Below are positions 12 to 54,342 of a DNA stretch of 64,000 nucleotides, piece by piece. Both the position numbers and the translations under genes were made by a program. The notes under the pieces are model-generated. The model made no database searches. It was not told the origin of the DNA and saw nothing but the letters and a program-made list of their open reading frames with translations. The DNA lies in the sequence record ON645936.1. One strand, given 5' to 3'. This DNA is from Escherichia phage N2. How positions within the stretch are numbered: position 1 is the first letter of the stretch; every line of letters begins with the position of its first letter.

Positions 12-2189
12 TTAGGCCGCAAGGGCCTTCATAGTTTTAGCGATTTGGGAAACTTCATCATCACTTAAAGAGTTGCGATAACCGATGAAGTCGGAAACAA
101 TACGGAATTTCTTGGTAAACTCAGCAACCATTTTATCACTGTTTTTTGAAGCATTATTTGATAATACATCAAAAAGATTAGTTACTGTCCAGATGTCATG
201 ACCGATGGTATCTTTTCCACCGTTGAAATATACACCCTGTAATGAACTAACCATATTAGCGAGTCGTGTATATTCTTCAGAAACTTCATCTACGCTGAAG
301 TACTTCATCATAAAATCTAACTCAGGATACTTGATAATTTTATCAATATATCGTTTAGCTGAACTTGAATAACCTACATACTTATCATAATCTACATCAT
401 CAAAAGCATCTACATATAAATCACGCAGAGTTTCAAAAATACATTGGCACTGACCAAGTTCTTTTACCTTTTTCTGTAAAAGCGGACGAATAACATAAAA
501 TTCATTAATGCCAATAAGATTAGCTATACGAATCAAAATATTCGTAGATGGATGACAAAGCGATGTAGTACCATCCATAGAGAAAATATCAGAACGATGC
601 ATGTATGCTACATAACCAGTAATTTCATCTGCTTCTGATGTGAGCGTAAATAGTTCCTCTTTTTCCCAGCGCCCGTCTTTAATTTCAAACTTAAATGCAG
701 TAGCAGCTTTAGGACGAGGAGCTGTACTTTTTACTGCCTTTGGAATATAACTTTTAACTAAAGCTTCAATTTCTGACAAATAATGAATGTTAACTTCATC
801 ACTTTCAAACATTGCCATAATATCAGGGAGTAAATCAATCTGTGATTCTACTTCCGGATTAATAAACAGAAGACGCTCATTGTGATGAATATTTAAGGTG
901 TTATTAAATTCACTATCATCTAACGCGCGTGCTAATCCACGGACAATATTAACACGATTTTTAGTATTATCAATAACAATATTAATTTTTGTCGTATTAA
1001 TACCAAACAGACGATAGCTTGACGCAACGGCTGAAGTTTCATGGCTTTGCTTAATGCGTTTCAGTCGAGGGTCAAGATTTACTTCATACACAACTCCTGC
1101 ATTGCACAACTTGCTGTCAGGTTCAAACATGCTCTGCATCTTTTTATATGATAGATTTTTAGTCGTAAATTTGACTGAATTACTAATCATATAATCTCGA
1201 GCAGAATATCCCATCTTCATCAATTCACGGTATGTATGACGAGGAGATGTAGATTCTTTAAATCGTTTTACATCTTCATTGAATGCCTTCTCACTAAGCT
1301 CTTTAACACGCTCAATAATATTTTTACGAGTACGATCATCTAGTGAAAGAGCCTCACGCGATGGAGCAATATCAAGTGAACCCATTGGAAACTTAATGTA
1401 ATTCACTTCATTGCGAATGCTTAACCAGTTACGGTCTCTAATGACACCATCAATAGGATAAACAATACCACCATAGATAGCATACAATCCACCACGATCT
1501 GGCCAGTATCTTTCTGGATTTACGCCGTAATAATCATCAAAATCCGGAAAATAATCAATTTCGCGGTCAAGACCATTAATGATAGCCAAATCTTTGAATG
1601 GTCGCATGATATAGGAAACTTCATAAGCAAAGTTTCTAAAGTCTTTTTCTTCAACTGGAACTACGATTTCAATACCAGTTTTATCGTCTGGACCCATTTC
1701 TTTTACGAATGTAGGTTTAATCTGCGGACCGTCACCATCCATATAAGCTACATAACCGCGAATTTCACCTTTATGGTACGAAGTAATACTAAACGTATCA
1801 GTATAACTAAACGGAGATTTAGAACCTAAACCAAATCCACCAATGAAATCGTTAGATTCAGCCTTAGATGAACTGAAGTATGAATTATACAACCCAGGAG
1901 AATTATCATCACCCTGAATATCAAAATCGCTCATACCCGGACCAAAATCTCGGCAAACAAATCGCGGATCTAATCGTCCTGGAACTTGAATGATAAATTT
2001 TTCATGATTTCCATTGAGAGCATGGGCATCAATCATGTTGGTAATCAATTCACGTACTACTGCGCGAATCTTGTTTGTATACAAATCAGATGATAGAATT
2101 TTAAATACTTTAGGAGATGCTGTGATGCTAAATGCTTTTGATTTAGAACCATTACCAAGAATTGTTTCTTTTTCAGTGGTGATAATCAT
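12..2189 (-). CDS. rIIA: rIIA protein (GHKL-ATPase-like N-terminus)
   Basis: 725-aa ORF, ATG start; N-terminal [10 protein letters not shown] / GFGLGSKS motifs; size and position as T4 rIIA. Confidence 0.85.
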
Positions 2190-2457: not shown

Positions 2458-4275
2458 CTACTGGCTCATCCATTCTTTACGAAGGTCAGCATTATCTCCC
2501 ATGAGCATTTCAAAAAGCTCTTTCCAGTTCTCAGGAAGTTTAACAACATCATATACTGGGTTTTGAATCATCTCACGATATTCAGATTTTTCCAAAGAGC
2601 CAAGTCCTTTAATATAACGGATGCTATGTTTAGGTAGAGCATCTTTGGCACTCTCATATTCAGCGACTGTATAAAACCATTCTTGTTTTTTACCGACCTG
2701 AGCGATGATTACAGGAGTTTTGACAAAGCGAATTCTTCCTTGTTCAAACAATTCTGGCCAATTACTAAAAAATCCGAGCAGAGAAGGATAAATGCTTCCT
2801 AGACCATCGTGGTCAGCATCAGTCATAATAGCAATATTATGATAATTCAAGTTTTCAGCTTTTTCACCAAGAACTAATCCAGTGATTGCGCAAATATCAA
2901 ACAGTTCTTTGTTTTTAAGCATATCAGCATATGACATACCCCAACTGTTGAGAACTTTACCACGCAATGGATAACCGCCATGAAGTTCTTTATCGCGAAC
3001 ATCAATAAGATATCCGATAGCAGAATCACCCTCAGTCAAGAAAAGAGTAGTGTCAGCATCTTTACCGCAAAGATTCGCTTTAATATGTTTATGAACCTTA
3101 GCTTTAGAGGCCTTTTTAGCTGCTTTAGTTTCTGCTGCTTTTTCTGCCGCCAATTTACGAGCCAAAGCAGCTTCAATGATTGGCATTAAAATTGCTTCAT
3201 TATTTAAAATAGCACGTGAAATCTTTTTAGCATCAAGCTGAATATGACTACGAATTTCACCAAATGGAGAAGTCAAACGCTCTTTAGTTTGAGAATCAAA
3301 TCGCATGTTTTTCATATCACGAACAAACATAACGATAGTCAAACATTCTTTAACACGTGCTTTAGTTACATCAATTTTGAATTTACGTTTGATTTGTGGA
3401 ATAAGGTCTTCACAAATATCATCCATAACGCAGTCAATATGATGGCCACCATTCTTAGTATGAATGTTATTGACGTACGTTAATTGACGAAAACCATCCG
3501 GCGAACGACCAACCGCAATAGAACAGTTTTCTTGTTCTTGAACGATAGCATGCTCATCATATTGGCGTGCGTATTTCTTAAAATTACCCTGAACCTTTTT
3601 ACCATTAAAGGTAAATTGAATATCAGGATAAACTACTGCAAGTGTCTGGAGACGATCCAGTGTAATGTCAAGATAAACTTGAGATAGCTCATTAGTTTCA
3701 AATGACATAAAATCAGGAATGAAAGTAACGCGAGTTCCTTTCCATTTTCCAGGAATATCTTCCCACGATTTATTTTCCATGCCGTTTGAACAACGAACTA
3801 CAATATTATTTTGACCGTCGCCAGTTTCACCGACAAACATCACAGAAAAAATGTTAGTTAAACTAGAACCAACACCATTCATACCACCGGTGACGCGTTC
3901 TTTATCATCACCAAAGTTACCACCTGCTTTTGGAATAGTCCAGGCAGCAACTGGACCAGGAATTTCTTCACCAGTAGGTGTTTTAACCATCGCCTGTGGA
4001 ATACCACGACCGTTATCTTCAACTGTTACTTGATTGTTTTTGATAGTAACATTAATTTTATTTGCGAATTTAAACTTAGTACGAATACCTTCATCTACTG
4101 AGTTATCGATAATTTCATCAATAAGCTTAACAAGACCAGGTACATACTGAACACTTTCCCATTTACCAAACAGAAAGCGCTCATGCATTTCATTAGCAGA
4201 AGAACCAATGTACATGCCGCTACGCTTTTTGATATGTTCAATATCGCTCAGAATTTTAATTTCATTCTTAATCAT
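2458..4275 (-). CDS. 39: DNA topoisomerase II large subunit, contiguous (GHKL ATPase + TOPRIM)
   Basis: 605 aa from ATG at 4275; NSVDEG ATPase and EGDSA TOPRIM motifs in one ORF. Confidence 0.85.
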   Translation of the reverse strand: MIKNEIKILSDIEHIKKRSGMYIGSSANEMHERFLFGKWESVQYVPGLVKLIDEIIDNSVDEGIRTKFKFANKINVTIKNNQVTVEDNGRGIPQAMVKTPTGEEIPGPVAAWTIPKAGGNFGDDKERVTGGMNGVGSSLTNIFSVMFVGETGDGQNNIVVRCSNGMENKSWEDIPGKWKGTRVTFIPDFMSFETNELSQVYLDITLDRLQTLAVVYPDIQFTFNGKKVQGNFKKYARQYDEHAIVQEQENCSIAVGRSPDGFRQLTYVNNIHTKNGGHHIDCVMDDICEDLIPQIKRKFKIDVTKARVKECLTIVMFVRDMKNMRFDSQTKERLTSPFGEIRSHIQLDAKKISRAILNNEAILMPIIEAALARKLAAEKAAETKAAKKASKAKVHKHIKANLCGKDADTTLFLTEGDSAIGYLIDVRDKELHGGYPLRGKVLNSWGMSYADMLKNKELFDICAITGLVLGEKAENLNYHNIAIMTDADHDGLGSIYPSLLGFFSNWPELFEQGRIRFVKTPVIIAQVGKKQEWFYTVAEYESAKDALPKHSIRYIKGLGSLEKSEYREMIQNPVYDVVKLPENWKELFEMLMGDNADLRKEWMSQ

Positions 4276-29424: not shown

Positions 29425-30111
29425 TTAAAAATCGTGGGTAGAATCAGCTTCAAGAGCTACTACATAATTCGCGTGTTCACCTTCAAATTTAGCAGCGCCT
29501 TGTTTACCTTTTGCCCAGAGCAGAAGTTTATAATTTCCTGGTTGCATTTTCATATTTGCCATATTGATAATGAAATTAAATGTATTTTCACCGTCATAAT
29601 CACCAAGAGTCAAAGAATATTTAACACGGGTCAAAGCAGAATCTTCCACTTTATTAAAACCGTTAATTACGATTTTACCTTCTTTTACTGTGATAGCAAT
29701 TGTATCAATCTGCAGACCGCGAGATACACGCAACAGCTGTTGAAGGTCTTCCGCTTTAATTTCAGTAACAACAGATGCTACCGGGAATGGAATTGGTTTA
29801 TTAGGAGCAACTACTGTACTCGGATCAGCTGCTGGCCAAAAAATTGTTGAACGGGCATCAGCAATTTTAATATTACCATCTTCTGACTGGGAAATTTCTG
29901 CATCATCATTAACTAGAGACAGAATACCGAGAAAACCGTTCAAATCGTAAATTGCTACATCAAAATCAATAGTGTCAGAAATATTTGCTTCCGCATAAGT
30001 TGTGCCATTAACCGCGCGAGTCATAATAAATTGACCGGATTTAAGCATAATACCAGAGTTAATAGTAGCGAAATTTTTCAAAATATTCAGCGTGTCTTTA
30101 GATAATTTCAT
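29425..30111 (-). CDS. 45: sliding clamp
   Basis: 228-aa ORF, position. Confidence 0.9.
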   Translation of the reverse strand: MKLSKDTLNILKNFATINSGIMLKSGQFIMTRAVNGTTYAEANISDTIDFDVAIYDLNGFLGILSLVNDDAEISQSEDGNIKIADARSTIFWPAADPSTVVAPNKPIPFPVASVVTEIKAEDLQQLLRVSRGLQIDTIAITVKEGKIVINGFNKVEDSALTRVKYSLTLGDYDGENTFNFIINMANMKMQPGNYKLLLWAKGKQGAAKFEGEHANYVVALEADSTHDF

Positions 30112-30995
30112 TTCAATTTCCTATTTACATAATAGTTAGACCAGGACCGTACAGCACCCTGATAAGATTCGTCGTTAAACCCATTAGCTACTGCAATTTT
30201 ACGAAATTTATTATAACTCGGTTTTCCGTAAGCATGCCATAAAGATTTTAATTCATCTTCATGTTCAATCCAAGTTCCTCTAGCTTTAGATTTTCTAAAT
30301 TTTGATTTGAATTCCGGTAAATTATTTCTAACAGTTGCTTGAATTGAAGCTCTCTGTCTTCTTTCAGCATTATTCCATAATTCTTTTTGAGATTTAGAAA
30401 TTTTTGATCTTACACTTTCTGAATTCATTATATCACTAAACTTTTTAGCATAACTACAATCAAGATATTTCAATTTCATCTTATTTGAGAGTTTAAGCTT
30501 TTTCTCATCGGTCCAGTGAATCTTCATTGAATTAGATATTTTGTATTTTACGTCAGAACTATGTTTGTAACCTTTACGAATACCAACATAATCTGGTGTG
30601 ATTTCAGATTGTGAAAGCTTTACAATTTTTCCAGTTAAAACATTTTTATATGTTCCATATCCTTTAGCACCAATTAAAGTATTTTCATCTGCGTACGCTT
30701 TATTAAAATATTTTATATTACTTTTTGCTTTAACTTTTAATTGAAAAAATCTTTCCAATTTTCTTGGATCTAATATAGTTTCAGCCAAAATTTTGACGGT
30801 ATATTTAGTGGTTTTAATAAGCTCAAAATATTCATCGCTATAACTCGATGACACGCTTCCAGTATAAATCTTTCCAGCTGAATCAATTATATTTGTTCCA
30901 TCGAAAATTGCGTCAATTTTCGAACCTATATAATAACACGGAAAAATATTTTTAGCTTCCCGCTCTGGAAAGCTAATAAGATATACTAAATTCAT
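30108..30995 (-). CDS. GIY-YIG homing endonuclease (seg-like)
   Basis: 295 aa; VYLISFPE...CYYIGS motif; basic repeat-rich C-terminus. Confidence 0.6.
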
Positions 30996-31633: not shown

Positions 31634-32350
31634 ATGAATTATAAACTAATTTATGAAAAGTTAATCTCTAATGCTAAATCTCGAAAACTTGATTGCTATA
31701 CTGAATCTCATCACATTATACCACGCTGTTTAAATGGCAGCGATGATGCTTCAAACTTAGTAGATTTAACACCAGAAGAGCACTATGTAGCTCATCAACT
31801 TTTAGTAAAAATTTATCCTTCTGAACCAAAATTAGTCTATGCTGCTAACATGATGACAGTTTCTACGAAATACGCTAAACGTAACAATAAAACTTTCGGC
31901 TGGATTCGTCGTAAACTCTGGGAAATAGAAAAGAATAAAGAGTTCTCCCAAGAGACACGAAAGAAAATGTCCGATGCAGTAGCTAATAAAGCAAGACTAA
32001 CTTGTCCACATTGCGGTAAGTCTGGATTAAGCGGGAATATGAATCGATGGCATTTTGATAACTGCCCAAATCACCCCAATCCTAAAGTTAGACCGCCAAT
32101 GTCTAAAGAACACAGAAATAATATCTCAAACGGGCTTAAAGCAATCGTTCTTGAAGAAACATCCTGCGAATTCTGCGGAATGATAGGCAAGAAATGCGTT
32201 ATCGCAGCGCATAGAAATTTCTGCAAGAAAAATCCAAATGGACGCAAGAAAACTGAAAAGACTGGTACTTGCGTCCATTGTGGTAAAGTTACCACTTTCG
32301 GAAATTTATCAAGATGGCATAATGATAATTGTAAATATAAACCTAGCTAA
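31634..32350 (+). CDS. HNH homing endonuclease with three zinc-ribbon repeats (plus strand)
   Basis: 238 aa; ESHHIIPRC...NLVDLTPEEH; three CxxCG...RWH..NC repeats; AAAGGA SD. Confidence 0.7.
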   Translation: MNYKLIYEKLISNAKSRKLDCYTESHHIIPRCLNGSDDASNLVDLTPEEHYVAHQLLVKIYPSEPKLVYAANMMTVSTKYAKRNNKTFGWIRRKLWEIEKNKEFSQETRKKMSDAVANKARLTCPHCGKSGLSGNMNRWHFDNCPNHPNPKVRPPMSKEHRNNISNGLKAIVLEETSCEFCGMIGKKCVIAAHRNFCKKNPNGRKKTEKTGTCVHCGKVTTFGNLSRWHNDNCKYKPS

Positions 32351-36542: not shown

Positions 36543-37743
36543 ATTTTGTAATAATGTCAAACTGTTCTTTAAAGCAGAAGCTTGAATCTTGATGCTGATA
36601 CAAAAATTCATAAGCTTTTTCACGTTCACGGTCATAAAGAGCTCGGTCAGATGACAGTTCTTTAATACGTTCAAATGTTGATTCCATGTCATTTTCATCA
36701 AACCAAACGATACCGCTATCGTGTGAAATTAATGGAGTATTATCAACACGGAATTTTAAATTTTCGCCAGTAGATTTCCAAAATACCGGAATTGTTCCAC
36801 ATGCACCAAGCTCGAGATGAGTATATTCTAAAGAACGTTGTAGATATTTTTTGTCCAACTTACTCAGCTGATAACCAAATCCGGATTTACTCATGCGTTC
36901 AAGCATTTCGCTATTTACATAACGGTCGAGAATTTGCGTCGGCAAATTAGGAGCAATTTTAATTTGGTCTACTTGGTGAAGACGATAATACTCGTATGGA
37001 ATTCCTTTTTCTTTAATAGGAATGAACGCTGGAGAACGTTCCAGACCTTCCATAATAGTACTTAGTCCTGCAGGTTTAAGATGTTTTTCATGAAAATCAA
37101 ACATCTGATAAAAACCTTTCCATGTAGTCGTACGACCAATCCAACGGTTGATATTCATGTTAATTTCAGAAACATCTTTCCAGTAGGTTGACCGAACCTT
37201 CGCAATATCCATAGGAGGCTGAAAGTTATATACTGCCGGTGCTTCTTCAATATCATCAAACAGAGAAACTGTTTCAGGATACCATTCTTTCATCAGAACT
37301 TTATTAAAATCACCATTATCAGAATGGCTAAAAATAACATCAGCTCGACGAACAGTTTCTTCTAATCCCAAATTTCGGCGCAAAGAAAGAGAAGAATGGT
37401 CATGTTGATAAACTACAACACGAACAGAAGGTTTAATGTTATCAATAATTTTTTTATAGTTATTAATAGTGTCTTCTTCAACCGAAGTAGCAGGAACTGA
37501 ATTGATAATTAGAATATCACAATCATTTACCAGCTTAAGTGTTTTATCGTATTCTTTTGCCAATAAAACTGGAATTGAAAATGATTTATAATCATGCGCG
37601 CAATTACGAGTAAATGATTTATCTTTAGCATAAACCAAAGTCACTTCATGACCATTTTTAATAAACCAATCACGTTGCTCGAGTGAGAATTTTGTTACAC
37701 CACAACCTTCAAGACCTCGAGCCATAAAAATACATACTTTCAT
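36541..37743 (-). CDS. agt: alpha-glucosyltransferase
   Basis: 400 aa starting MKVCIFMARGLEGCGVTKF. Confidence 0.85.
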   Translation of the reverse strand: MKVCIFMARGLEGCGVTKFSLEQRDWFIKNGHEVTLVYAKDKSFTRNCAHDYKSFSIPVLLAKEYDKTLKLVNDCDILIINSVPATSVEEDTINNYKKIIDNIKPSVRVVVYQHDHSSLSLRRNLGLEETVRRADVIFSHSDNGDFNKVLMKEWYPETVSLFDDIEEAPAVYNFQPPMDIAKVRSTYWKDVSEINMNINRWIGRTTTWKGFYQMFDFHEKHLKPAGLSTIMEGLERSPAFIPIKEKGIPYEYYRLHQVDQIKIAPNLPTQILDRYVNSEMLERMSKSGFGYQLSKLDKKYLQRSLEYTHLELGACGTIPVFWKSTGENLKFRVDNTPLISHDSGIVWFDENDMESTFERIKELSSDRALYDREREKAYEFLYQHQDSSFCFKEQFDIITK

Positions 37744-44644: not shown

Positions 44645-44675
44645 TTCATCATTATATTCAGCATGAGTCGCAAAT

Positions 44676-45446
44676 TCATGCCCGTTTATATGAAACAACA
44701 AAATTTGGATAGTCCATAGATATGCAACGTTCTTTTATAGTGCTAGGATGAAAATTTAGCGCTTTAGCTGCTTCTATATAAGACGTATACTTAATACCGT
44801 CAACAACCACATATTCAGGAACTTTATGAATAGTAGTCTTAATACTCAAAACAAGAGGATGAGTTTCGACTTCACTTTCAGTGCAATTTAAATATTCCGC
44901 TGCTTTTTTAAAACTTCTAAAAGTTTTATTTTTAAGCTTTATCGATACTTGTTTTTTACTTTTTCGACTATTGATATTATTTTGCACATGTTCCTTAGAT
45001 CTTCCGTTTTTAGCATAATATTCAGCTACAGAAGATTTTATATTGTTTTTATGAGATTCGGATAACACTTTACCCTTATGAGCATCTCTTAATTTTTGAA
45101 TATGTTCTTCAGTATCCGGATGCTTATAAAACTTTTTACCGCCTATGGATTTATTTAAACATTTTTTGCTATAAAAATATTTACGTATGACCTCTTCTTC
45201 ATGTTTTAATGCATCTTTATAACTATCAAATGTTTTTAAAATTATCCATTTAGTAGGTGTATCAGTTTTTAAGCGTTCATTTATATACTTAGATGACGTT
45301 GTGTAAGTTTTCCAGTTTGTGGGCTTGTTTTTAATTGTTCTAAATTTTTTATAACCGATATAAATGTCGCCATTAGAAAACTTAACTAAGTATGTAAATG
45401 CGTCTTTATCTTTTATTTTAGTACAACGTCTTTTTATCCATTTCAT
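44676..45446 (-). CDS. intron-encoded GIY-YIG endonuclease (I-TevII-like)
   Basis: 256 aa; YLVKFSNGDIYIGYKK; GAGGTG SD; late promoter upstream. Confidence 0.65.
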   Translation of the reverse strand: MKWIKRRCTKIKDKDAFTYLVKFSNGDIYIGYKKFRTIKNKPTNWKTYTTSSKYINERLKTDTPTKWIILKTFDSYKDALKHEEEVIRKYFYSKKCLNKSIGGKKFYKHPDTEEHIQKLRDAHKGKVLSESHKNNIKSSVAEYYAKNGRSKEHVQNNINSRKSKKQVSIKLKNKTFRSFKKAAEYLNCTESEVETHPLVLSIKTTIHKVPEYVVVDGIKYTSYIEAAKALNFHPSTIKERCISMDYPNFVVSYKRA

Positions 45447-45475
45447 TGTTTCACCTCGTATTCATAAGATAATCT

Positions 45476-45483
45476 TATTTATA
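45476..45483 (-). promoter_or_regulatory. late promoter inside nrdD intron
   Basis: exact TATAAATA on minus strand about 30 nt before endonuclease ATG 45446. Confidence 0.55.
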
Positions 45484-45689
45484 CAAGATGACTGCTGCAT
45501 GTCGCCATGCAGATTAGACTATATCTTCATCTTTCGATGCCGGCCGTTTCGAATAGCATTAGCTTCTATTCTACACCGCTACATTCATCACGGTTAGTCG
45601 TTAGGCATTTAGTTCAAAAGAACATTTAGCACGGGATTGTCTACTAGAGAGGTTCCCCGTTTAGACCGGTTTTACATGAGCCTGAATTA

Positions 45690-46232
45690 AATTAACTCAT
45701 ACGCCTGGAATGCATCGTATACGTCTTTTTCTGTTTTAGATTGGGCATAATTCAATGCATCTGCGATTTGCCATTTTTCCGCGTCCTCAATATGTTTTGC
45801 ATAGGTGCGTTTAACATAAGGAGAAAGTACTTTATCTACATTCGCAAAAGTCGTTCCACCATATTGATGGGAAGCAACCTGTGCAGTAATTTGTGCCATA
45901 ATTGCAGTAGCAACGCCAATTGATTTAGGAGTTTCAATTTGAGCATTGCCTAATTTAAATCCATTCTCAAGCATCCCCTTTAAATCGACTAAACAGCAAT
46001 TAGTAAATGGAAGAGCAGGGGAATAATCAATATCGTGCACGTGAATAATTCCGCTTTCATGCGCTTTCATAATAAAAGACGGGACCATATTTTTGGCAAT
46101 GTGCTTAGACACAATACCAGCCATAAGGTCCCGTTGAGTTGGAAAAACACGAGAATCTTTATTAGCATTCTCGTTTAAAAGGTCTTTATTAGTTTTATGA
46201 ATCAATCCTTCAATTTCTTTTTCAATTGTCAT
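45690..46232 (-). CDS. nrdD: anaerobic ribonucleotide reductase NrdD, exon 1 (3' boundary approximate)
   Basis: 181-aa N-terminal part; frame closes at 45687 at intron edge. Confidence 0.75.
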
Positions 46233-48400: not shown

Positions 48401-48656
48401 GTTCCGGTTTACGCCAGTTAATCAATTGGACCTGTTCAGTACCGCATTTTGGGCAGTTCGGAACATTCTTAGAAGCCCTTTCGCGGCGTTCAACCATAAC
48501 CATAATGGCATCCCAAGCAGGAGGTTTAAAGTCTAGATCGTCACAACCATGAATCTTTCCACGCATTTCTAGATCGTCTTCTTCACCAGCCATAATAGTT
48601 TTAATTAGACTAGAATTACTTGAAGCTGCAATATCTTCTAATAAGCGCTTTTTCAT
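48339..48656 (-). CDS. zinc-ribbon protein
   Basis: 105 aa; CPKCGTE...CRHCKH. Confidence 0.45.
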
Positions 48657-49582
48657 TTCAATACCTCAATAGCATTACGTAAACCATTTGCTTTTGCATT
48701 AAGAGCTTTTAACAATTTAGTGTGTTCGGCAATCTGGGCTTCAACTTCAATCAAACGAGCATTGAGATATTCGCGTTCTTCGCTCAGGTTATCAACCTTT
48801 TCTACTTTAGGTTCTTTTACAACTGGCTTATATGTATTAGGATTCTTCAGTTTAATTAGAATGCGTGAACTGTATAACATTGAACCATTATCTTCGGTTT
48901 CGTCATACATTTCCACTACGTCCATCATCTCCACCATCGTGCAGAGTTTATAAGACAACGAACGAATAGTTTTGTTATGCTTATTAATTTCTCTAGCTGT
49001 CATGGTGCCGAGATTACGTGAGTAATAATAAGGAACCTGGATATTAATTAATACTGATGAACCACCTGGCTTGTGTGTTACTTCATCAGCAATAACCCAG
49101 TCCTTAACATGAACTGTATTTGTACGGTCATCGCCCGCAGTAAATAGTTTACGAGCATGCTTAAAAAGCATATTCACTTGGTCATTGAATTGACAAGCAA
49201 ATTTATCAGCAAATTTAGTTTCAGGAATGGTAGATAACCAATCAGCTAAATGGGTCTTTTTAACATCGTTAACAATAGTAAATTCAACCAAATCGGTTAT
49301 AGATGTCGCAGATTTAATGAAGCTCGGCTTCATAAAGTTTTTAATGTTATCACTAGCTACAGTAGAAGATAACAGACGAGAACGTTTAAACCATTGAAGC
49401 AAATTGCCTAACGAATGAGAATAAGCGTTTTGAGTATCTTTACAGATATGATTTTCCTGGCCAACATATTGAAAGAAATCACGAAGAATATTATTGATTA
49501 CTGCTCTGTGCCCAATCTGATAATTACGGTGTTTAGTAATAAGACTATCAAAATAATCAATATAATGTTTACGAGTTTTCAT
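48653..49582 (-). CDS. hypothetical protein
   Basis: 309-aa ORF with coiled-coil C-terminus. Confidence 0.5.
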   Translation of the reverse strand: MKTRKHYIDYFDSLITKHRNYQIGHRAVINNILRDFFQYVGQENHICKDTQNAYSHSLGNLLQWFKRSRLLSSTVASDNIKNFMKPSFIKSATSITDLVEFTIVNDVKKTHLADWLSTIPETKFADKFACQFNDQVNMLFKHARKLFTAGDDRTNTVHVKDWVIADEVTHKPGGSSVLINIQVPYYYSRNLGTMTAREINKHNKTIRSLSYKLCTMVEMMDVVEMYDETEDNGSMLYSSRILIKLKNPNTYKPVVKEPKVEKVDNLSEEREYLNARLIEVEAQIAEHTKLLKALNAKANGLRNAIEVLK

Positions 49583-49590
49583 GGTGTTCC

Positions 49591-50244
49591 TTAAGATTTA
49601 AGTAAATCAACAATTTTAATTAACTTTTCACGCTCAGATTTAGCTTTACTACTCAATCCAGATAGTCTGAAAATTTCATCATCATATTGTTGAATAGAAA
49701 TATTCAGCTCTTCAATTTGCTTATTAAAATAATCAATTTGTTCAGAATGTTTTTCATTACTATGAACCGGTACAGGTTTTGTAGGCAATTTAGTTGAACT
49801 GGATTCATCCGGGCGATAAATTAAAATACAACTTGAACCAATCGGACATTTAGCACCAGACACATATTCTAATGTTCCGGCTTCTTTTAAAATTTCAAAA
49901 GCTAAACAGAGATGATGCCCCATATTAACATAATCTGTAGAGCGAGCTCTGACGTAATAATCATCTCCATGAGTACTAAATTTAAAGCATTTAAGGTCTT
50001 CTGTATTATTAGTTTTAAAAATCATTTGTTTATCTAGACCTTTAGCTAATCGAGCGCCCAATGCTAATAATCGTCGTTGATTTTCCCACAAATCTGCGAT
50101 CATTTGGTCAAATGATAATTTCGGCATTAGTCGACCATAAAGGTCATATCCTTTATTATAATTGCGAAGAATTTCACTCGCGTTAATGCGAGACAACGCT
50201 CCAATTTTATTAAGGGCTTTCATGATGCGATTAGATAAAAGCAT
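49591..50244 (-). CDS. hypothetical protein, apparently 5'-truncated by frameshift
   Basis: 217 aa from first ATG; frame stays open 63 codons upstream without a start. Confidence 0.5.
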   Translation of the reverse strand: MLLSNRIMKALNKIGALSRINASEILRNYNKGYDLYGRLMPKLSFDQMIADLWENQRRLLALGARLAKGLDKQMIFKTNNTEDLKCFKFSTHGDDYYVRARSTDYVNMGHHLCLAFEILKEAGTLEYVSGAKCPIGSSCILIYRPDESSSTKLPTKPVPVHSNEKHSEQIDYFNKQIEELNISIQQYDDEIFRLSGLSSKAKSEREKLIKIVDLLKS

Positions 50245-50413
50245 TCCAGACCCGTTTGTTCGTTGTAAATGTTTTTCTAATCCAAATCCAATATCAACTT
50301 TAAACTTATCTAAAATTTCGGCGTGAACATCTTTATCAATAACATTTAAATTTAGTACTGGGTTAAATTTATGAAAAAATTTATCTGACTCGTCGTGTTG
50401 AAGTACAGTCCAT

Positions 50414-50479
50414 TCATTTGATTTTTTTATTAACTAAAGATTTAATTACTGCATTGACATTATTAATTGCTACTGACAT
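50414..50479 (-). other. 21-codon N-terminal ORF fragment ending after A7 tract (50421..50427)
   Basis: ATG at 50479 (MSVAINNVNAVIKSLVNKK); removing one A joins it to 49591..50244. Confidence 0.5.
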
Positions 50480-50486
50480 ATTTTCC

Positions 50487-50894
50487 TCACTCAATTTCAA
50501 TTTTACTAAATACACAGAATATGATTGAACAGACTACATAAGCACCGCACACAGATTGAACTAATACCATCCCAAAGAACCAAACAATATTATCAAACAG
50601 TGTCTGTTTTACGTCGAAAGGACGTAAACTTACAGTAATATTATCACCTTTTTCTATTGAAGAATACATCTCTGGGGAAATATATTCACTAAATCTATAA
50701 CCGTCTTTGAGTTCATATACAGCAATAAACGATAAACTAGACCCTTTTCCTTGTGTTCCTGTGATAGTATTAACTACAGTAACATCATAATCTTTATAAT
50801 GCATATAATCATTAATTGCGTAATAACCGTATGCAATTGCTATACATAAACAACATATCAATAAATTCAATCTTTTAATTATCAACTGTTTCAT
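50487..50894 (-). CDS. membrane protein
   Basis: 135 aa with N- and C-terminal hydrophobic helices. Confidence 0.5.
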   Translation of the reverse strand: MKQLIIKRLNLLICCLCIAIAYGYYAINDYMHYKDYDVTVVNTITGTQGKGSSLSFIAVYELKDGYRFSEYISPEMYSSIEKGDNITVSLRPFDVKQTLFDNIVWFFGMVLVQSVCGAYVVCSIIFCVFSKIEIE

Positions 50895-50949
50895 AATAAT
50901 CTCAATTAAAAGGGCTTAGAACCATTATACCATCCTTGGTATAAAGCAG

Positions 50950-51477
50950 TTATGCGAGTACCGTCTTTAACCGTTCTTCAAACTTCCGAAGAGTATTTTG
51001 GCGTTCAGCTCTTTGCTTTTTGTAAGTTTCAATACGCTCTGAAATGAGAGTGTATCGTTCATTTACTGATTCTTTCATAAAATCAGGAATTTCACGAGAA
51101 GCTTTAATCTCATCAAATTTATCAATAACAGCTTGCTCTTCAGCAATTAAATTATCATACATTAAAATATCTTTCTTGATGAACTCAATATCTTCTTGAG
51201 TTACACGAGACATTTTAGATGCTTTATCCTTTTTGTAATGTTCGTTAGTATCACGAGACCAGTGTAATGTACGATTTTTATTCGTATTTTTGTAAATTTC
51301 TACAATACCAATCTCATCGATAATAACGATCCAATTCCAACGGGATTTGTAAATTTGTCCTCCATCAACCGTGATTTCACCTCCGATTGAGATGTCGTTA
51401 AAGAACTTGCTTTGTGCTTCAGATTTAAATTTACCATCGTTGTAATTTACCAAGTTGAAAATATCTTTAGCGTTCAT
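50950..51477 (-). CDS. hypothetical protein
   Basis: 175 aa; GGAGGAACAG SD; promoter 51506..51535. Confidence 0.5.
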   Translation of the reverse strand: MNAKDIFNLVNYNDGKFKSEAQSKFFNDISIGGEITVDGGQIYKSRWNWIVIIDEIGIVEIYKNTNKNRTLHWSRDTNEHYKKDKASKMSRVTQEDIEFIKKDILMYDNLIAEEQAVIDKFDEIKASREIPDFMKESVNERYTLISERIETYKKQRAERQNTLRKFEERLKTVLA

Positions 51478-51505
51478 TTTCTGTTCCTCCGTAGTTGATA
51501 GTTGT

Positions 51506-51535
51506 ATAGTACCACAGAGGAACAGTCTTGTAAAC
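51506..51535 (-). promoter_or_regulatory. sigma70-type early promoter with conserved leader
   Basis: minus strand GTTTACA-N17-TGgTACTAT. Confidence 0.5.
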
Positions 51536-51537
51536 CA

Positions 51538-51852
51538 CTAAAAGAAACTTCTTTCACAATTTTTTCCACTGAACCATGCGCTCACTGCTTTCTTAGTCTC
51601 AGGAGCAGTGTTATCCATAAACCATTCAAAGGCAGCCTTTTTATGATTCTGGAGGGCTTCTCGGGCTTTAATCTGCTCACGGTCTATTAACACTAACATA
51701 TGAGCCTTTCTTGTCACCATGGGCTTCTTATGATTTTTTGAATACTCCCAGTCATTTGTCCATCGCATTGTCGTTGCGAATTGAAATACAGCTTCTTTAA
51801 TCTTAGTTTCGTAAATTTCACGAGCCTTTGAGTATAACATCACTACCTCCAT
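51538..51852 (-). CDS. hypothetical protein
   Basis: 104-aa ORF. Confidence 0.45.
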   Translation of the reverse strand: MEVVMLYSKAREIYETKIKEAVFQFATTMRWTNDWEYSKNHKKPMVTRKAHMLVLIDREQIKAREALQNHKKAAFEWFMDNTAPETKKAVSAWFSGKNCERSFF

Positions 51853-53732: not shown

Positions 53733-54218
53733 TTATTCCATTTCTACTATATGCATGTTCTTTTTGCTATCAAAATATATGTTTTTAACTATTAACTCAG
53801 AATTAATTGGCAGTAAAAACTCTCTTTCATAATCTACCATACAAAGATTATCATAAAGCTTGTTAAGCTTATCATCGTCAGTTTGGCCAGATTCTTCAAT
53901 TGCGATTAAATTTTCTAAAATGTCAATCATGGCAGTCGAATAGTCGAAAACGTTTGCATTTTTTAACACTACTAAAACATTAGTCATATAGCGTTCTGCC
54001 GCAAACGTTTCAGCTATATGAGACTCACTGCTAAAGGAAGTTATTCTTTTAAATTTGATTCTCCTATTAACTTCAAACTTATAAGATAGCACTTCCTCTA
54101 TTGTAAGTCCTCTAAAAAGTATGTCTTTAATCTCAAGTTTGTCTTTAATGTAATCATTAACACGCTTATGATTAAAATCATTAATTTTGTTGCCAAGGCA
54201 TTGCATTAAAATATGCAT
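53733..54218 (-). CDS. hypothetical protein
   Basis: 161-aa ORF bracketed by promoter and terminator. Confidence 0.5.
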   Translation of the reverse strand: MHILMQCLGNKINDFNHKRVNDYIKDKLEIKDILFRGLTIEEVLSYKFEVNRRIKFKRITSFSSESHIAETFAAERYMTNVLVVLKNANVFDYSTAMIDILENLIAIEESGQTDDDKLNKLYDNLCMVDYEREFLLPINSELIVKNIYFDSKKNMHIVEME

Positions 54219-54317: not shown

Positions 54318-54342
54318 AAAAAAAGGGAGCCCGAAGGCTCCC
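54318..54342 (-). terminator. intrinsic terminator after nucleotidyltransferase gene
   Basis: GGGAGCC-UUCG-GGCUCCC then UUUUUUUGUUU on minus RNA. Confidence 0.65.

Follow-up and report, generated by a model that had tools for sequence, protein, structure and literature searches.

The nrdC.6 gene of Escherichia phage N2 is split near its start by one extra A in a run of adenines, an ordinary, non-programmed single-base insertion at a homopolymer of a dispensable accessory gene. We consider a genuine and very recent pseudogenisation through replication slippage to be the probable explanation, and infer that the extra A is present in the phage DNA and not merely in the consensus.

The broken gene lies on the minus strand of the window, by which we mean the whole 64-kb stretch of phage N2 DNA that was analysed (Table 1). 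The ATG at 50479 opens a frame that reads MSVAINNVNAVIKSLVNKKIK* and is closed after 21 codons by a premature TGA just past the run of A, as had been described in the first-pass annotation; the same annotation counted the seven As correctly but placed them at 50421..50427, while the run in fact occupies 50422..50428. The remainder of the gene continues in the +1 frame for 280 open codons down to the normal stop. Its first 63 codons contain no ATG, GTG or TTG, and the first ATG, at 50244, opens a 217-aa ORF, both of which had likewise been read correctly. Upstream of this ORF (AACGGGTCTGGAATG), reading of the sequence revealed no convincing ribosome-binding site. Independent initiation of the downstream part was rejected on these two grounds, namely the 63 codons free of possible start codons and the first ATG that lacks a good ribosome-binding site. 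The authentic start is preceded by a GAGG Shine-Dalgarno sequence that is kept in every relative examined. Deletion of one A in silico yields a single ORF with the junction NKKSNEW, so the predicted fusion and its junction peptide stand, but the product is 295 aa long and not the ~298 aa given earlier. At the run itself the sequence has changed from AAT AAA AAA TCA to AAT AAA AAA ATC A. The family is characterised by an uninterrupted frame of ~275-298 codons, and since this frame is split at the A7 run, phage N2 carries a disrupted member of the nrdC.6 family, be it through pseudogenisation or error.

Table 1. Positions of nrdC.6 and adjacent features in the phage N2 window
Feature	Position	Strand	Remarks
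nrdC.3 homolog, downstream neighbour	48653..49582	-	309 aa, PHROG 1435, intact
nrdC.6 body, +1 frame	49591..50433	-	280 open codons and normal stop
217-aa ORF from first body-frame ATG	49591..50244	-	what a gene caller would report
nrdC.6 5' fragment	50414..50479	-	authentic start, 21 codons MSVAINNVNAVIKSLVNKKIK, premature TGA
A7 run (T7 on the + strand)	50422..50428	-	nrdC.6 codons N18-K19-K20; site of the +1 insertion; A6 in relatives with identical flanks
Shine-Dalgarno GAGG	50485..50488	-	5 nt 5' of the authentic nrdC.6 ATG; overlaps the nrdC.7 stop codon
nrdC.7 homolog, upstream neighbour	50487..50894	-	135 aa, PHROG 2547, intact

A 1.5-kb query taken from the window matches 622 phage records at 80-99% identity, and judging by its sequence the window is from a Tequatrovirus (T4-like phage). 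On sequence similarity and by the annotation of T4, the broken gene is a homolog of T4 nrdC.6 (T4p090; Y05B_BPT4; Pfam PF26899 Phage_T4_Y05B; PHROG 2257). Residues 1-295 of the repaired protein align to positions 1-303 of the 303-position PHROG 2257 profile with an E-value of 2.3e-149. The protein matches 105 homolog clusters, all of them PF26899 and nearly all 273-298 aa in length, at 100% coverage and down to ~40% identity; identity to Tequatrovirus homologs is 92-97%, and residues 18-295, which make up the body, are 97.5% identical to the F26 protein. The first 19 residues of the 5' fragment, in turn, are those of the intact homologs. Both pieces therefore belong to one gene, as had been proposed: the homologs are contiguous, and in phage N2 the extra A splits off the start codon together with 19-20 codons. 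Residues M1, S2, I5, N6 and K13, all located before the run, are conserved family-wide, and an AlphaFold model of the repaired protein (pLDDT 77.8) places residues 3-23 in a single, confidently predicted helix extending across the run. The protein thus includes the short 5' piece as an integral part. A search of the local Pfam library with the protein gave nothing above threshold, only sub-threshold noise; a profile search of the PDB found no relative, and Foldseek comparison of the model with the PDB returned no meaningful neighbour (best E 0.056, TM ≤0.22). A literature search for 'nrdC.6' found no mention of the gene.

The gene order nrdC.8, nrdC.7, nrdC.6, nrdC.5/.4/.3 is found in T4, HY03, fPS-2, BP32, F26 and phage 132. 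Phage N2 has the same order in its nrdC-mobD early region, minus nrdC.4 and nrdC.5, with nrdC.6 in its expected position downstream of nrdC.7. At the nrdC.6/nrdC.3 junction (49583..49590) nrdC.4 and nrdC.5 are wholly missing, and likewise in Yersinia phage fPS-2; other close relatives hold nrdC.4, nrdC.5 or both there, an additional 1-2 kb. The HY03 copy of nrdC.5 is in two pieces, with CDSs at 2718..3014 and 2974..3741 of the segment compared. A promoter and terminator scan of 49400..51600 detected nothing above shuffled expectation.

Three in-frame alleles are found at the run among the relatives. The first, AAT AAA AAA TCA AAT GAA (A6, KKSNEW), is carried by HY03, F26, BP32, sutha and an IMG/VR contig; the second, AAT AAA AAA TTG/TTA AAT GAA (A6, KKLNEW), by fPS-2, the RB phages and many others; and the third, AAT AAA AAA ATG ATG AAT GAA (in-frame A7, KKMMNEW), by T4, phage 132 and T2 (PV648363). 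The flanks of the phage N2 run are of the first (TCA) type on both sides, with one extra A between them. A comparison with homologs had been recommended in the first-pass annotation, and it shows A6 together with an unbroken nrdC.6 CDS of 888 bp in relatives whose flanks are identical. Phage N2 thus displays a gain of a single unit in a mononucleotide run with unchanged flanks, A7 against the A6 of HY03, F26, BP32, sutha and the IMG/VR contig. A recombinant origin, in which a T4-type A7 upstream would have been joined to an A6/TCA-type downstream part, was considered and rejected: the sequence upstream of the run (GCA, MSVA) is of the A6/TCA type and identical to that of HY03 and F26.

A 101-nt probe carrying the A7 allele had no 100% match among the 435-501 matching records (~500 deposited T4-like genomes), and all of the full-length matches listed span either 100 nt (A6) or 103 nt (T4 type); once corrected to A6, the probe has a 100% match in phage sutha. 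At least 110 records have the exact A6 context in frame, and all ten environmental contigs (six metagenome and four IMG/VR) are in frame at the run. Probes of 99-101 nt in which the commonest allele was made one base longer (+1) or shorter (-1) recovered no such record, and a search of public assemblies for the exact 217-aa product returned none on record. Related phages sharing the A7 and a separately initiated downstream ORF had been named as a finding that would speak against a disrupted gene. T4-type relatives do have A7, but in frame (AAA AAA ATG ATG); PP01, one T2 record and ECP52 are indeed out of frame at the run and have a downstream ORF annotated from an ATG past it, but their alleles differ from that of phage N2.

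A sequencing error at the homopolymer had been one suggestion of the first-pass annotation. The same data bear on the possibility that the lesion is a sequencing or assembly artefact, i.e. that the phage truly has A6 and an intact nrdC.6 and that the consensus is off by one, which we regard as possible but clearly less probable than a real mutation. Homopolymers of 7 nt or more, the kind of site most prone to error, number only three in the 64 kb, and the lesion sits at one of them; the phage N2 allele is absent from the other genomes searched. In addition, PP01 (LC348379) and T2 (LC348380), which come from one batch, are both -1 at the run, compatible with a platform artefact at this tract. 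To gauge the quality of the assembly, we screened for frame breaks by taking every ORF of 70 aa or more in F26 and phage 132 (~65-70 kb each), comparing it with the phage N2 window and scoring terminal truncations. Full-length counterparts were found for 178 of the 186 relative ORFs. The eight exceptions comprise the F26 gene 39 HNH insertion, the nrdD intron, a 49.x allele difference, three N-terminal differences in start choice, and nrdC.6 with both relatives. Among the ~90 genes in the 64 kb, nrdC.6 is the only one with a window-specific frame break, which argues that the assembly is not generally error-prone.

The window contains 67 six-base A/T runs and three seven-base runs, and a frame break is found at none of them except the nrdC.6 A7. 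With a platform prone to miscounting homopolymers one would expect several such breaks, and this speaks against an artefact, as does the demonstrable dispensability of nrdC.6, whose copies in relatives are often truly mutated by nonsense codons or a large deletion. Besides the nrdC.6 run, homopolymers of 7 nt or more occur only at 37449..37455 and 54318..54324 (a T7 and an A7); at neither was a 1-nt difference in length from F26 or phage 132 reported, and the comparison with phage 132 has a 2-nt gap 5 nt before the A7 of this pair, at the alignment edge. The other window-specific 1-nt indels fall in gene spacers, in leaders and at the edge of a window-specific insertion, the true starts near some of them having been assigned by comparison with annotated relatives. 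As judged from these positions, the placement of the other indels argues for the footprint of selection on real indels, and not for homopolymer miscounting. This pattern favours a real mutation at the nrdC.6 run, although a single consensus error is still possible.

Outside the run, nrdC.6 of phage N2 looks fully constrained. The repaired gene differs from that of BP32 at 12 nucleotides, which give 10 synonymous and 2 non-synonymous codons, and of its four private substitutions three are synonymous. Since the copy displays neither secondary decay nor relaxed constraint, the insertion is either very recent or artefactual; this particular observation fits an artefact as well as it fits a recent mutation.

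In relatives, nrdC.6 has been inactivated repeatedly, often by lesions other than homopolymer artefacts. In the Logan assembly of SRR22355889, a TGG to TGA nonsense mutation is found three codons past an intact A6, and SRR13760421 has an additional G in a G4 run of the gene. Two T2 records, LC348380.1 and PV648363.1, both carry GGA to TGA at about codon 202, ~603 nt into the gene. The T4 reference (NC_000866) has a 1-nt deletion ~780 nt into the gene, GAGCTG-ATATTTC as compared with GAGCTGAATATTTC, so that T4 NrdC.6 ends with ...MMMKFSDYLD* at 275 aa and the invariant C-terminal helix of the family is missing; this is either a real lesion of laboratory T4 or an old sequencing error. In Pinarejo (PP925831.1; 1195..1408 of the segment compared), ~0.7 kb of nrdC.6 is deleted starting directly after the A-run, with an apparent TTAATAA microhomology in the sequence. 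The run itself has also changed in length elsewhere. PP01 (LC348379.1) and T2 (LC348380.1), from a single submission batch, have A6 in place of the in-frame A7 (-1). The T2 records PV648363 and PV958097 have A7 where LC348380 has A6, and this disagreement among T2 records shows that sequencing pipelines or laboratory stocks vary at the run. ECP52 (ON782582.1; ~950..961 of the segment compared) has A9 and an annotated CDS start at the ATG directly behind the run. These out-of-frame T4-type alleles are annotated as restarting after the run because the new stop overlaps the ATG ATG of the body frame; the phage N2 allele, unlike them, has no such restart codon. Separately, nrdC.6 of Shigella phage Sf25 (378 aa) contains an in-frame tandem duplication of 83 residues (IRAHSTDYVNMG...KQIEEL repeated).

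The variety of these lesions, which include nonsense codons and a large deletion, indicates that loss of nrdC.6 is tolerated, and we infer that it is neutral or mildly beneficial. The longest homopolymer in the gene is then simply its likeliest point of failure. One could go further and regard the A-run at codons 18-20 as a contingency tract, with A7 as a selected escape allele. This would make the run an adaptive off-switch, an idea to which we give very little credence, and we are just as sceptical of its corollary that T-even phages rid themselves of NrdC.6 where it imposes a cost, for instance when it is sensed by host defence. Phage N2 (+1), PP01 together with one T2 record (-1), and ECP52 (A9) have undergone independent length changes at the run; furthermore, the endpoint of the Pinarejo deletion adjoins the run, and the gene has many other knock-outs. 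These lesions, however, are scattered across the whole of nrdC.6 and are not focused on the run, a distribution that fits plain dispensability. At 6-7 nt the run is short compared with typical contingency tracts; most records by far are fixed in frame, and the exact in-frame A6 context is kept in the at least 110 records and the frame in the ten environmental contigs mentioned above. Nor did our literature search find nrdC.6 mentioned, and no function or fold could be assigned to its product. If this idea were true, nrdC.6 would be a candidate trigger of host defence.

A further alternative, raised by the first-pass annotation and disfavoured by our analysis, is that expression depends on slippage and that the A7 allele still yields full-length NrdC.6, as a programmed device or through leaky rescue. 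We judge this to be highly improbable. The ribosome would have to shift by +1, on A AAA AAA or else at AAA UGA, or RNA polymerase would have to delete one A during transcription; the expected junction peptides would be ...VNKKSNEWTVLQ... for a shift within the run and ...VNKKIKEWTVLQ... for a shift at AAA UGA. The body of nrdC.6 is still intact, A-runs are known slippery sequences (PMC5009743, PMC1088944), and a tRNA-Lys slipping by +1 from AAA onto the overlapping AAA would, by base-pairing, re-pair perfectly and give the wild-type NKKSNEW. The protein can be restored only by a +1 or a -2 shift. Frameshifting by -1 on A AAA AAA was considered separately and rejected, as the -1 frame stops after 21 codons (ORF 50352..50417).

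Conservation is a hallmark of programmed recoding, but the out-of-frame arrangement is found in phage N2 alone among ~500 genomes and 10 environmental contigs. A programmed ribosomal frameshift would also call for a stimulatory element, and here, too, the site falls short: the A-site codon after the run is the common AUC, neither a stop nor a rare codon; no Shine-Dalgarno-like stimulator is seen just upstream of the run; and the 87 nt downstream have a minimum free energy of -5.8 kcal/mol, folding worse than their shuffles (z +1.43). T4-type phages are transcribed by E. coli RNA polymerase. Programmed transcriptional slippage requires a run of sufficient length, and the 7 nt found here are shorter than the ~8-9 A/T needed for slippage of bacterial RNA polymerase (PMC6260861, PMC1088944). 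A systematic reporter study of the E. coli enzyme detected no slippage when the run was shorter than T7 or A8 and observed none by deletion on poly(A) (PMC6260861); genome-wide, selection against slippery runs starts at ~9 nt (PMC1088944). With the run length below these thresholds, any rescue would occur at trace level.

We therefore return to recent pseudogenisation, likewise named in the first-pass annotation, as the favoured account. Slippage during replication would have added one A to the A6 run of nrdC.6 (a Streisinger-type frameshift). Translation from the normal start would then end after 21 codons, leaving the other 276 codons in the +1 frame. Because this frame has no start codon for 63 codons, essentially no functional NrdC.6 would be made, and nrdC.6 of phage N2 would be a very young pseudogene of a dispensable accessory protein.

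The main import of this analysis concerns annotation. The locus should be recorded as one disrupted nrdC.6, either as a pseudogene or with a remark such as 'frameshift, verify homopolymer'. Splitting it into a 217-aa protein and an orphan peptide would be misleading, as would proposing it for a site of recoding. Of modest further use is the catalogue of nrdC.6 damage in many T-even genomes, including the T4 and T2 references. Since the gene is damaged in so many of them, it is evidently dispensable in laboratory propagation, and since the T4 copy is itself damaged, work on the family should take intact alleles, such as those of HY03, fPS-2 or the RB-series phages, as reference in place of T4.

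Several other features of the window were recorded along the way. Between gene 45 and rpbA, the window has a ~0.9-kb insertion that F26 and phage 132 lack, filled by a 295-aa ORF on the minus strand (30108..30995); the position and sequence of this ORF lead us to guess that it probably encodes a free-standing seg-type homing endonuclease. A 238-aa ORF on the plus strand (31634..32350), opposite to its neighbours, lies in a ~0.8-kb insertion that is also absent from F26 and phage 132, and is probably a mob-type HNH homing endonuclease, given its HNH-like motif (ESHHIIPRCLNGSDDASNLVDLTPEEHYVAHQ) and its several CxxC pairs. The segment 53708..54289, located between the homologs of nrdC.10 and nrdC.11, does not align to F26 or phage 132 and contains a 161-aa ORF on the minus strand (53733..54218). 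Finally, relative to phage 132, nrdD contains a ~1.05-kb insertion (44650..45696) that is also found in F26 and T4, and on account of its presence in these two phages we assign it as the nrdD group I intron with its endonuclease ORF.

The proposed slippage frameshift of phage N2 nrdC.6 would be an ordinary event. Runs of A in T4 are textbook hotspots of Streisinger slippage frameshifts, e.g. the spontaneous hotspots of T4 rII, and frameshifts of this type were reportedly attributed to replication slippage by Streisinger et al. in 1966 (as cited in PMC12606429). The phage N2 case resembles those of T4 rII in that a mononucleotide run has one unit more while its flanks are the same, and in that the phage is a T-even replicated by a T4-type polymerase; it differs in that it comes from a natural or deposited genome and was not selected in a genetic screen. 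As compared with T4 nrdC.6 itself, the position between nrdC.7 and the nrdC.5/.4/.3 block and the start context are alike, whereas the phage N2 copy is split by the additional A and that of T4 has an in-frame A7 followed by TGATG (KKMMNEW), as well as a separate 1-nt deletion near its 3' end. Frame rescue by slippage or savior indels at A/T runs has been described for Thermus dnaX (A9), Shigella mxiE (T9), IS elements (A9) and Citrobacter tssM (PMC1088944, PMC4256274). In these systems, as in phage N2, a homopolymer parts two frames of one protein and a changed run length in the mRNA would restore the frame; however, the run of phage N2 is only 7 nt long, its rescue would need a deletion on poly(A), and the arrangement is not conserved in relatives. 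Similarly, the +1 frameshift of E. coli prfB shares with phage N2 a downstream frame in +1, and on the A-run a P-site tRNA could re-pair perfectly, but the phage N2 run differs from prfB in having no slow or stop codon in the A-site, no upstream Shine-Dalgarno-like stimulator and no conservation.
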